Shown here: piece after piece, positions 39,001-42,000 of the stretch
Layout: each line of letters begins with the position of its first letter
Position numbering within the stretch: the first letter of the stretch is position 1
Source: an uncultured Gammaproteobacteria bacterium
Lineage (GTDB): Bacteria; Pseudomonadota; Gammaproteobacteria; JABCZS01
NCBI GenBank assembly: GCA_964443025.1
Contig: CAYUEL010000001.1
Location: forward strand, 6,155 to 70,154
Direction of reading: 5' to 3'
DNA: 64,000 nucleotides
Program-made: the position numbers

Positions 39001-42000
39001 ATGAATCAATGGTCGTGTAAAGAATGGAAAGTGTTTTGGTCACCGTTCCGGGCTCCGATTAAACTTCTTCGTTTTAGGATCTAAACAATCCCAATGATAA
39101 GCGTCTTCTACCCAAATGTCGGTATCGGGTTGATAATCTTTTGGATTGTCGACGGTGGCGCCGGATACGGTTCTTAATCCGCCTAAAACTTCCGGCTGTC
39201 CAAATATGTAAGTACCACAAGTGGGGCAAAATGAACGATTCACGTTGTTACCACTCGCACCCTTCACAGTATACGTCGTGCATTTTCCTTCTGCTTTTAA
39301 CGTGTCTGGTTTAACTAACATGTAAGGAAAATAAGCAGAACCTGTCGCCAGTTTACAATCACGGCAATGGCATTTACCCATCGCAATGGGTTCCTCCGTA
39401 ATTTCATAACGAACCGCTCCACAAAAACATCCACCTTTGATTGATTTAGTCATAATTTTTCCTCCAGCTCCGGTAATACCTTAAATAGATCGCCCACTAA
39501 CCCGTAATCGGCCACTTGAAAAATGGGCGCATCAGGATCTTTGTTAATAGCCACGATGATTTTAGAATCTTTCATGCCCGCCAGATGTTGAATCGCACCA
39601 CTAATACCCACGGCAATGTATAACTTAGGAGCGACAATCTTACCTGTTTGACCCACTTGATAATCATTCGGTACAAAACCTGCGTCAACGGCCGCACGGC
39701 TTGCACCCACTGCAGCATGAAGTTTATCTGCAATACGTTCCAGCATGGCAAAATTTTCTTTGCTTTGCAAACCACGACCACCGGAAATCACAATATCTGC
39801 CGTTGTTAAATCGGGACGAATCGATTGATGCGCTTCTAATTTAATAAATTCAGATAATTTTAAATCTTCAATGGTGTTAATGATAGTAATAGGCGCAGCA
39901 CTTTGCTCTGAAATATCCGATTCAAATGCCGTGGCTCTAATCGTCAATAACATATTGTTAACATTCACTTTAACTTTAATAAAAGCATTACCTGCATAAA
40001 TAGGTCTTGAGAATGTATGATCATCATGAATTTCCGTCACATCAGAAATCATCGGCCAATCTAACAGCCCGCTCACACGGGGTAAAATATTTTTACCGAA
40101 TGTATTCGCTGGCGCGAGAACATGAGTGTAATCATTCGCTAGCGCTGCTATTAATGCAGCAATATTTTCTGCTAATACATGTTTATACGCAACGTTATCG
40201 GCACATAATACTTGTTTAACACCTGCAATCTTCGCTGCTTGTTCAGCAACACTCTTACAATTTTCACCCGCAATTAATACGGTAATGTTATCGCTGAGCT
40301 TCTTTGCAGCACTGATACAATTAAATACGGAAGGATTTAACTCCTGACTATTATATTGCGCTAACAAAAATATTTTGTTCATGCATTTATCCTAATGATT
40401 CAGCCTTAAACAGGTCTTCCAATGTAATGATTTGATCGAAATACCATCTATTTATTAATTCTTCTGTAGCCCCCGATGCAGTAACAAGGATTTTATGTAC
40501 CGTTTTTTGTTTCAACGCTGGAAAGCAGGCTAATTTACGTTCAAATTCCTCTATCACACTGCTGGTAACCTTCGCTTCTGTATATTTGATTTCACACACC
40601 GTCATCACTTTATCTGCCCTATCAAAGACTAAATCAATTTGAAAACCAGGTACTTCCTTTTCCACTGAGCGATTAAAATAAACTCCTGACTTATACTGCA
40701 CTGCAGAAAACCCCAGTATTTTTGCAATGAGACTACTGCGCTTACGGCAAAATCGCTCAAACGCGTATCCTAGCCACGTGATATAACTTGCCTGGTTAAC
40801 ACCGGATGTTGGGCTATCAATAAATTCAGCGTTTTTAATGGCTTTTAATTTTGGTTTGATAAAATGAAAATAAAATTGCAAATAATGATCCGCAATGCAA
40901 TAACGTATTAAATAGCTATCATCGCTCATATTATAGGGTGTATAACTCTCTATAAAACCACATAATTCTAAGTCTTTTAAGAGTTTTGTTAAACTGCCTC
41001 CTGTTTCCACTTCAAGAAAGGCAGCAATTTCCTTTCGGGTTGCAAAGCGTTTTTTACTTAAAAACTGAATAACCTTCTTATAGTATGGATTAGTTGCCAT
41101 ACTGCTTGTAAATATTTTTTCACACTCTTGAACGAAAAAACCATTCTTAACAAAAGCATTTTTACATATGCTTAAAAATGTTGAGGAATCTTTATCCGCC
41201 CATTTTAAATATTCTGGGACACCACCAATGGTTAAGTATGCGTTCATTGTTTCTTTTATAGATCTTTCTCCCAAAAATTGCTGAGTCTCTCGAATATTAA
41301 ACTCCTGCAGAGACAACTCATATTGACTTCGATTATAAAGAGATTTCGAGTGAATGACGTTGTTAATCATAAAAGAAGGTGAGGATCCACACAATACTAA
41401 AATGAGTTGATCATTTTTTCTAAAAAAGTTATCCCAAACATATTTTAATTCTGCAATGAATTCTGTCTTATAATTTGCCAACCATTGCACTTCTTCAAAA
41501 TACAACACACAGGGCCCTTCCTTTACGGACTCATAAAGCAGTTGAAAAACGTCTGTCCAATTCTCTAATTGCAAATGTCGTAACAATGGCTCTTGCCGAT
41601 ACCCAGCAAGCTGCTCAATCACTTGTTTTATTTGACGCCCTTTAGGTTCGCCCTCTATCCCTTCAAATTTAAGCATATGATGAGAACCATAAGCATATTC
41701 CAATAACGTTGTTTTCCCTATCCTTCTTCGGCCATAAATAACAACGATTGTTGCCTCTTGCTCCTGGGTAATACTCTGCAAGACCTGCAATTCTTTCTTG
41801 CGGCCAATGAATTTTTTCGGGATTTTGGGTACGAGGTATTCCATCGCTCTACTCTGTCGAGCCAGATACTGTGAATAATATTCATATCTGGCTCAAAAGT
41901 CAAATAAAATTTGAGCCAGATATGGGTAAAAACATACCTATCTGGCTTGATAAAAATACAACCCGTTGATTATACTCAACTTTTTAAAACAGGCTCGAGC

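Follow-up and report, generated by a model that had tools for sequence, protein, structure and literature searches.

A PDC-S27 ATPase-nuclease cassette and its upstream palindromic array in the etfB-etfA spacer of a Dot/Icm-bearing gammaproteobacterium

Why should a gene for an ATPase-nuclease, preceded by an array of four short palindromic sites, lie between etfB and etfA, and what is the role of that array? This question is raised by a 64,000-nucleotide stretch of an uncultured Gammaproteobacteria bacterium (GenBank assembly GCA_964443025.1, contig CAYUEL010000001.1, positions 6,155 to 70,154; hereafter the window, which means the whole stretch analyzed), in which 1593 nucleotides (nt) separate the two etf genes. 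The unit between them is referred to as WIN2, and a paralogous gene with an array of its own, located elsewhere in the window, as cassette 1 (Table 1). An earlier note, made from the sequence of the window, had described WIN2 as an integrated cassette and not an ancestral neighbour of etfBA. The comparisons reported here make a lineage-specific insertion highly probable, identify the array as a feature of the whole protein family that is likely bound by a cognate protein, and lead us to favour, on balance, autorepression as its main role.

A scan of a genome collection with EtfB returned relatives 54-60% identical, and in all of the 79 distant proteobacterial loci holding both genes etfA directly follows etfB, with no homologue of the ATPase. 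Closer relatives of EtfB were obtained by a protein search (P0123 and P0124, 76-77% identical, and P0126, 64%), and their contigs, L081-L085, which include NCBI GCA_021773275.1, carry an etfB 76-77% (L081-L084) or 64% (L085) identical to that of the window. These five contigs share with the window the gene order on both sides of etfBA, namely 2-oxoacid dehydrogenase E2/E1, short-chain dehydrogenase, isochorismatase and a divergent ETF-QO on one side, and etfB, etfA, GFA, acyl-CoA dehydrogenase, thiolase, carboxyltransferase, enoyl-CoA hydratase (ECH), HMG-CoA lyase (HMGL) and an AMP-binding enzyme on the other. The distance from etfB to etfA is 57 nt, 192 nt or -4 nt in the five, and no ATPase homologue is found within 8 kb; in the empty-site comparison that the earlier note had proposed, all five syntenic relatives are without the gene. 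The nearest homologues of the ATPase, P0003 and P0002 (loci L166 and L168), are 66-67% identical and occur in unrelated neighbourhoods, one beside genes for a diaminopimelate (DAP) epimerase and an MFS transporter and the other between genes for an MFS transporter and an FG-GAP protein, and the window proteins themselves are singletons, by exact sequence, in a collection of 15 billion proteins. Since the sites of the syntenic relatives are empty and the nearest homologues lie in unrelated contexts, we hold with high confidence that the ATPase gene between etfB and etfA is a lineage-specific insertion, as the earlier note had proposed. That the gene could be an ancestral neighbour of etfB and etfA, lost from all sampled relatives, appears extremely improbable: the lineage is poorly sampled, the nearest available relatives being only 76-77% identical in EtfB, but the gene is missing from all 84 comparison loci, its closest homologues occupy non-etf contexts in other organisms, the family is scattered over phyla at ~55% identity, and loss in every sampled relative would be far less parsimonious than acquisition. 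No recombinase, terminal repeat or target-site duplication is shown at WIN2, where the nearest empty sites are too diverged for nucleotide-exact junctions or for the recognition of a duplication.

The earlier note had presumed that the relatives of the host are Legionellales, and the DotM and DotL-like coupling protein encoded in the window fit this presumption. In this Legionellales-type lineage with Dot/Icm genes, the cassette occupies the spacer between etfB and etfA with neither gene damaged, both EtfB and EtfA being complete from first residue to last. The unit lies on the minus strand in the same orientation as the etf genes, and the coordinates given for it previously were all borne out. 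At the 5' side, etfB terminates in TGA at 41976, and in a DNA alignment of WIN2, L166 and L168 no similarity is seen within the 27 nt that separate this stop from the first site (41949..41975), a stretch that may be either residual etf spacer or junction DNA. At the 3' side, etfA starts 4 nt beyond the TAA of the ATPase ORF, and the AGGA proposed in the earlier note as its Shine-Dalgarno sequence is read directly from the last codons of the ATPase gene. Because no terminator-like site was found between etfB, the ATPase gene and etfA, etfA transcripts probably arise by read-through from both the etf promoter and that of the cassette, and translation of etfA probably starts from this AGGA. In the genome of the window, the expression of etfA would now rely on transcription through a foreign gene and on translation signals inside that gene. 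A tight 3' junction as a rule of the family was considered and rejected, the distance to the next ORF being 30 nt or less in only 14 of 61 homologues. In the same operon, a CutA1 gene (38723-39043, minus strand) sits between the GFA and acyl-CoA dehydrogenase genes, and no gene is found at this position in the syntenic relatives L081 and L083, which makes a second small lineage-specific difference.

The inserted gene encodes a protein that matches the PADLOC profile of the PDC-S27 family over its full length (PDLC04984, E 4.3e-103, residues 11-479 against positions 3-473 of 474), and the product of cassette 1 matches the same profile (E 6.4e-87). In Pfam, PF01637 (ATPase_2) is reached with 70 bits (cut-off 33.2) and PF03008 (DUF234) with 19.3 bits for the whole protein and 21.7 bits for the domain alone, against a gathering cut-off of 22.5; a precomputed PF03008 match is present in several close homologues. 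None of the NCBIfam models match the window protein, and in a sequence search of the PDB the sole match was 2qen (E 5.5e-4), covering the ATPase part only. The acidic residues of Walker B, E117/E118, are invariant in a 23-sequence family alignment, and E363, D404 and E418-x-K420 of the C-terminal domain are invariant in two family alignments (A1 and A4). An AlphaFold model of the 485-residue protein (pLDDT 90, pTM 0.88) displays an AAA+ module with lid (about residues 1-250), a winged helix (about 253-317) and an alpha/beta PD-(D/E)xK domain (about 320-485). According to Foldseek, the closest structures to the whole model are the archaeal AAA+ ATPases 2fna and 2qen, followed by archaeal Orc/Cdc6 proteins (1w5t, 4.5e-9; 1fnn; 2qby), eukaryotic ORC and STAND NTPases, and the ATPase module also matches Avs3 among the STAND proteins. 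The C-terminal domain modelled alone (pLDDT 78) matches MspJI (E 2.9e-4), McrC, NucS/EndoMS, Cdn1 and Can2, which are all PD-(D/E)xK nucleases, MspJI and McrC being the best matches. The assignment of a predicted nuclease rests on the near-threshold DUF234 match, the invariant E, D and ExK residues and the match of the domain model; both similarities claimed beforehand, to ATPases and to nucleases, were found. In the predicted winged helix, which gives a weak MarR-like Pfam match (E 0.1), the putative recognition helix comprises residues 283-294 (GGSLTKLLKDLELCGF), and its residues between conserved hydrophobic positions vary among homologues.

The architecture is that of a single gene, with the ATPase fused to the PD-(D/E)xK domain and no partner gene conserved across L166, L168 and the window. 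No TPR, WD40 or LRR sensor domain was detected in the Pfam scan or in the model, and no transposase or recombinase (DDE, HUH, serine or tyrosine) is found in the cassette, which consists of one ORF with ATPase and nuclease domains only. Published work counts DUF234 among the PD-(D/E)xK families, in fusion with an AAA+ ATPase (PMC3424549). PDC-S27 has been described as a single gene in which an ATPase is joined to a PD-(D/E)xK domain; it is reported to occur thousands of times in bacterial and archaeal genomes and to rank in the top ten of prokaryotic candidate defence systems by prevalence, validation being pending (PMC12988326). By its profile matches, the gene is a new member of this known, functionally uncharacterised family, which in our searches comprises 574 clusters at 50% identity (E <=1e-30) of very uniform length. 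Members ~55% identical are found in metagenome-assembled genomes labelled Babeliales, Chlamydiota, Myxococcaceae and Deltaproteobacteria, and no homologues were found among viral contigs.

Which role, then, may be attributed to the array upstream of the gene? Four sites with centre spacings of 26, 28 and 26 nt are present in WIN2 as the earlier note had stated. Within the window, the WIN2 array accounts for all four occurrences of the 9-mer AGCCAGATA (expected 0.29; 0 of 100 shuffles reach 4). The sites overlap a candidate promoter, TTGACT-17-TATTAT (41903-41875), with 10 of 12 consensus matches, and the expected transcription start falls at about S4. At the promoter positions, TTG and TAnnAT do not vary among WIN2, L166 and L168, and the same register is observed elsewhere (TTGAAT-17-TATAAT in L168 and TTGCAA-18-TATTAT in L086), while Bacteroidota-type loci carry a TAnnTTTG box directly downstream of the array. 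Both window cassettes show this geometry, with repeated palindromic sites overlapping the candidate -35 and -10 elements, as do L166, L168 and L086.

The array extends well beyond WIN2. A sample of 80 metagenomic loci with homologues 26-54% identical, together with L166 and L168, was analyzed for repeats in the 260 nt preceding the start of each gene. Of 77 distinct upstream regions, 33 have their best direct period (36-nt window) at 50-56 nt, as opposed to 9.7% of dinucleotide shuffles; 31 regions exceed the 99th percentile of the null, about 22 of them with a period of 51-55 nt and a minority with one of ~83 nt. Likewise, a two-unit inverted-pair score (k = 14) of at least 31 is reached by 38 of 79 loci and by 1 of 237 shuffles. 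Half-sites follow one another at intervals of 23-30 nt with the orientation reversed each time; four is the usual number, with two, five or six in some arrays, and the arrays end a few tens of nt before the start codon. The sequence of the site differs by locus, with a GCC core common to 23 of 33 strong arrays; the flanks aligned on this core give TAnATTn(A/C)GCCAnA, and of the resulting family core, TAnATTnnGCCAnA, the WIN2 site GAGCCAGATA is a variant and the cassette 1 site an outlier.

Several comparisons indicate that array and gene are inherited together. The 9-mer AGCCAGATA is found four times at equal spacing in WIN2, L166 and L168, three unrelated contexts, and in a three-way DNA alignment of these cassettes the similarity runs from site 1 to the stop codon. 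In an all-against-all comparison of diverged pairs, similarity extends from about -70 to -135 through about the stop codon in at least ten pairs beyond WIN2/L166/L168, and pairs of this kind are L116/L130, L109/L136, L100/L101, L099/L140, L110/L156, L095/L098, L119/L158, L122/L159 and L168/WIN2. In L125/L132, 87.5% identical and with different flanks, the similarity begins at the outer edge of the left half-site. Taken across these loci, the array is a family-wide, co-inherited and lineage-specific cis element, a lattice in which half-sites of alternating orientation stand ~26-29 nt apart for a period of 51-55 nt, and WIN2 is best described as a compact, self-contained, horizontally acquired single-gene cassette of ~1.57 kb, from S1 to the stop codon. 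The earlier note had credited the unit with a diverged array of its own: the array is diverged from that of cassette 1, but the possession of an array is a feature of the whole family and not of this genome alone. None of the papers found on DUF234, PF01637, COG1672 and PDC-S27, which are surveys and fold classifications, mentions the upstream array. A search of viral contigs for the site pattern AGCCAGATA-N14-18-TATCTGGCT gave seven matches, which were rejected as single terminator-like hairpins with no ATPase nearby, consistent with chance. As an observation on another family, the syntenic relative L083 carries beside the 2-oxoacid dehydrogenase E2 gene a different ATPase-nuclease gene (529-1692, minus strand; AAA_14 and DUF4143, PDC-S01-type), and repeated ATTCAA/TTGAAT palindromes are found upstream of it (1693-1770), so that this sister family, too, may possess cognate operator arrays.

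Cassette 1 offers a comparison within the same genome, and its paralogy to WIN2, previously put at about 30% by eye, is confirmed at the value given in Table 1. Its coding sequence runs to 14662 from either 16122 (ATG, with GGAG before it) or 16143 (GTG); the ATG is the more likely start and would give a protein of 486 residues, and the GTG, which is the mechanical ORF start, falls inside site S4 of its array. The latter (16133-16231) is composed of TATTATGCACATAAT / ATTATGTGCATAATA sites with spacings of 26, 29 and 26 nt. The site ATTATGCACATAAT is unrelated in sequence to the WIN2 site GAGCCAGATA and, within the window, is private to its own array. A candidate promoter, TTGACT-17-TAGAAT, is found at 16182-16154, and in both window cassettes the -35 element lies between S2 and S3, S3 in the spacer and S4 7-16 nt past the -10 element. 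With regard to its surroundings, the stop codon of cassette 1 abuts that of a convergent dotL-like gene (12295-14661) with 0 nt between them (14661/14662), and with dotM (DotM_C) at 11165-12295 the cassette is wedged against Dot/Icm type IVB secretion genes. Upstream of cassette 1, an intergenic 28-nt inverted repeat (CCGCTCACTCACGTTCGCGGTTCCCGTA / TACGTGAGGCGCGAACGTTAGTGAGCGG, 86% complementary) is located at 16732-16806, flanked by small ORFs at 16317-16592 and 16837-17271.

Based on these data, the array is likely a cognate protein-binding lattice. The host genomes belong to many phyla and every cassette has a site sequence to itself, which leaves the protein encoded by the cassette as the sole candidate binder common to all. 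Nonetheless, the sites could be bound by a host regulator or another trans-acting factor, given that palindromic operators are generic and that the binder is identified only by inference. We regard this as quite improbable, because the site is private to each cassette in the window, the array accompanies the gene in unrelated genomes and phyla, the two paralogues of one genome have unrelated sites, and a winged helix, arranged as in Orc/Cdc6, is predicted for the protein. Alternatively, the inverted repeats might act as RNA hairpins in the read-through transcript of etfB, serving as an attenuator, a processing site or a stabiliser. The spacer does fold strongly (-51.6 kcal/mol, z = -6.6), and the alternative pairings S1:S2, S3:S4 and S2:S3 are possible, but strong folding is expected of any inverted repeat, and the mismatches in the arms show no sense-strand G-U bias (66 sense against 54 antisense). 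Furthermore, the half-site sequence is conserved family-wide, which pairing alone would not need, the period fits DNA helical turns, the candidate promoter inside the array would leave only S4 in the cassette's own transcript, and at many homologues the upstream neighbours are divergent, all of which makes a function in RNA highly improbable.

For the main role of the array we favour, on balance, autorepression by the product of the cassette. We hypothesize that the winged-helix domain of this product would contact the half-sites, with the protein assembled as either a pair of dimers or a single tetramer on the same face of the DNA, since the 54-nt period corresponds to about five helical turns. 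As S3 lies in the promoter spacer and S4 over the expected start, binding would occlude the promoter and repress transcription of the cassette, and this self-repression would keep the amount of a potentially toxic nuclease low; the differing site sequences of the two paralogues would prevent cross-regulation. Four observations weigh against autorepression by the cassette's product. The promoter hexamers of both cassettes are consensus matches no commoner in this AT-rich region than in shuffles; about half of the homologue loci fall below the array threshold, and some periods are of ~83 nt. The covariation between recognition helix (residues 280-299) and site gives a partial Spearman coefficient of 0.20 (p ~0.03), and the rest of the protein gives the same 0.20, which indicates no more than co-inheritance. 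Finally, a second copy of the array follows the stop codon in ~10 of 72 homologues, and because such a copy is unable to serve as a promoter operator for that gene, the array may do more than autorepression.

These downstream copies are cognate arrays located within ~100 nt of the stop (~14% of the homologue loci; Table 1), mostly in direct orientation, that of L125 being inverted, and array copies are almost absent elsewhere in those ~10-kb loci. Their reading as remnants of tandem cassettes was rejected, as no second ATPase fragment lies beside them. A convergent downstream neighbour is present at 9 of the 10 loci with a downstream copy versus 29 of 52 overall. In the window, neither WIN2 nor cassette 1 has a downstream copy, the sites being on the 5' side only. 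Such a copy could be a protein roadblock or anchor a DNA loop, shielding the gene from convergent transcription, or could form one of the ends of an element, allowing excision by recombination between flanking repeats. L143 shows, in comparison with the near-identical L155 and L161, a ~445-nt insertion (3267-3712) 7 nt past the ATPase stop, with no array copy in it.

The second of these possibilities leads to an explanation in which the cassette is an autonomous mobile or selfish element and the arrays are recognition ends for its own ATPase-nuclease, which might cut protein-bound or extruded palindromes; excision or integration would proceed through the arrays, and the habit of residing in operons would reflect the mode of insertion. 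PDC families were nominated for members embedded in BREX, DISARM, type I restriction-modification (RM) or Hma operons (bioRxiv 10.1101/2024.01.29.577857), and here a housekeeping operon is the host, the neighbours of WIN2 being etfB, etfA, ETF-QO and leucine/fatty-acid catabolism genes and not defence genes. A PDC-S27 representative in E. coli B conferred no protection against T4, T5 and T7 (PMC12881386), the sole such test found, and this negative result would agree with a mobile element. So would the diverged cassettes in unrelated contexts that are alike only in array and gene, the second array copy after the stop in ~10 of 72 homologues, nearly absent elsewhere in their loci and free of leftover ATPase fragments that would point to tandem genes, and the lack of any other recombinase associated with the cassette. 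Against it, the array of each window cassette is confined to one side, neither a target-site duplication nor a terminal inverted repeat can be seen, and near-identical copies at different sites are not found among the 80 loci. To our knowledge, strand transfer by an AAA+ and PD-(D/E)xK protein acting alone is not known. Moreover, the arrays overlap the promoter, as regulation explains, and the excess of convergent neighbours fits a roadblock or DNA loop better than the end of an element. We therefore consider the mobile-element explanation unlikely. A more specific form of it, in which PDC-S27 is not primarily immune but a previously unrecognised class of minimal selfish or mobile element, made of an Orc-like ATPase-nuclease and a palindromic lattice through which the protein would keep its own expression down and also mobilise or maintain the cassette, appears doubtful to us as well. 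If it held, movement could occur via cleavage at protein-bound or extruded palindromes or by recombination between flanking arrays, and the "guilt-by-embedding" signal would reflect a habit of inserting inside operons, as in etfBA. Whichever explanation is preferred, the downstream copies, the embedding in etfBA and the negative phage test argue against taking the defence label for granted.

PDC-S27 is prevalent and has no known mechanism, and the lineage-specific operator lattice is the first testable molecular handle on the family: it predicts a defined DNA ligand and orthogonal specificities of the two window paralogues. The copy in a housekeeping operon also calls for caution, in that embedding in operons may be a property of the cassette itself and not a signal of defence.

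Table 1. Positions of the etf genes, the two cassettes and their parts in the window, followed by the array copies found downstream of homologues
Feature	Position	Strand	Evidence or remark
etfB (electron transfer flavoprotein beta subunit), undamaged, on the upstream side of the insertion	41976..42722	minus	Pfam ETF, E 3.7e-37
etfB-to-ORF spacer, 131 nt	41845..41975	minus	holds four 10-nt sites
Stretch from etfB stop to S1, 27 nt	41949..41975	minus	unlike other cassettes
Half-site S1, AAGCCAGATA	41939..41948	minus	one mismatch against the other three sites
Half-site S2, TATCTGGCTC on the coding strand	41913..41922	minus	inverted partner of S1
Candidate -35, TTGACT, between S2 and S3	41898..41903	minus	promoter scan; TTG invariant in three-cassette alignment
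Half-site S3, GAGCCAGATA	41885..41894	minus	inside the 17-nt promoter spacer
Candidate -10, TATTAT	41875..41880	minus	promoter scan; TAnnAT conserved in WIN2, L166 and L168
Half-site S4, TATCTGGCTC	41859..41868	minus	7-16 nt past the -10; ATG 14 nt further on
ORF, 485 aa, ATPase-nuclease of the PDC-S27 family	40387..41844	minus	PADLOC PDLC04984, E 4.3e-103; PF01637, 70 bits
Walker A, GRRRIGKT, residues 38-45	41710..41733	minus	G38, R39, R41, G43 and K44 invariant in 23-sequence alignment
Predicted winged helix, residues 253-317	40894..41088	minus	secondary structure of the model; Orc/Cdc6 fold match
PD-(D/E)xK nuclease-like domain, residues 320-485	40390..40887	minus	invariant E363, D404, E418-x-K420; fold match
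AGGA, probable Shine-Dalgarno for etfA	40390..40393	minus	within the Leu-Gly codons that precede the ATPase stop; etfA ATG 7 nt further on
etfA, complete from its first residue, on the downstream side of the insertion	39450..40382	minus	Pfam ETF and ETF_alpha; aligns from residue 1 with etfA of relatives
Cassette 1, paralogous PDC-S27 gene and array	14662..16231	minus	28% identical to the WIN2 protein over 483 residues
Downstream array copy, L144	within ~100 nt past stop (51 nt)		96% identical
Downstream array copy, L150	within ~100 nt past stop (66-82 nt)		two units
Downstream array copy, L162	within ~100 nt past stop (70 nt)		
Downstream array copy, L125	within ~100 nt past stop (61 nt)		95% identical, inverted
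Further downstream array copies, L118, L120, L130, L095, L101, L105			

Other features of the window were recorded in passing. At the far end of the catabolic operon, an ORF at 29994-31175 (minus strand) carries weak serine-recombinase signatures (Resolvase, Recombinase, HTH_62) and is followed by an ORF for a BCCT-like transporter (26702-28150); this region may be the edge of another acquired segment. A giant ORF of 4398 residues (50783-63979, minus strand), a 1390-residue protein with an N-terminal DnaJ domain (17256-21428, minus strand) and a 677-residue protein with 11 Sel1 repeats (21565-23598, plus strand) look, from their sequences, like effectors in a Dot/Icm-bearing genome.

Finally, WIN2 may be compared with systems already described. 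The closest likeness is with PDC-S27 itself (PF01637 and PF03008; COG1672), which it resembles in the full-length profile match, the single fused gene and the embedding in another operon; however, the founding examples of the family sit in defence operons, whereas the host operon of WIN2 is metabolic, and the conserved cognate array upstream of WIN2 is not described in the literature found. Genes and origins of archaeal Orc1/Cdc6 adjoin arrays of repeated, oppositely oriented recognition elements (ORB), and the WIN2 protein shares with these initiators both the fold, AAA+ with lid and winged helix, and the position of the gene beside oppositely oriented repeats. In contrast to the WIN2 protein, Orc1/Cdc6 proteins are without a C-terminal nuclease, and WIN2 is bacterial and belongs to a chromosomally scattered family, with two unrelated copies within 26 kb of one chromosome. 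Orc1/Cdc6 proteins act at origins, and nothing at WIN2 points to an origin, its half-sites overlapping a candidate promoter 14 nt from the start codon. By analogy, the WIN2 protein may resemble Orc1/Cdc6 in its mode of action, although it is not a member of that family.

A second likeness is found in the C proteins of restriction-modification systems, whose own product binds two adjacent palindromic operators (four half-sites) cooperatively. The logic that WIN2 would share with the C-box is that of operators over the promoter of a nuclease-encoding unit, a portable autoregulation of a potentially toxic gene. C proteins are small stand-alone helix-turn-helix (HTH) dimers with operators of ~35 bp in total, whereas the presumed binder of WIN2 is a domain of a 485-residue ATPase-nuclease and its lattice extends over ~90 bp with half-sites ~27 nt apart. 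McrBC, MspJI-type nucleases and the STAND/Avs proteins couple an NTPase to a nuclease effector, as does the WIN2 protein, but the latter lacks any domain for reading modifications and any sensor domain, TPR-type or otherwise, combines its domains, a winged helix among them, in one polypeptide, has cognate sites beside its own gene, and resembles STAND/Avs proteins only in the NTPase module. Likewise, RAYTs with their REP palindromes and integron cassettes with attC combine a gene with lineage-specific palindromic repeats, which flank ~14% of the PDC-S27 homologues on both sides. The PDC-S27 cassettes differ from both in having no HUH or tyrosine recombinase and no dispersed copies of the repeat in their loci, and those of the window differ further in being one-sided, with repeats that contain the candidate promoter.

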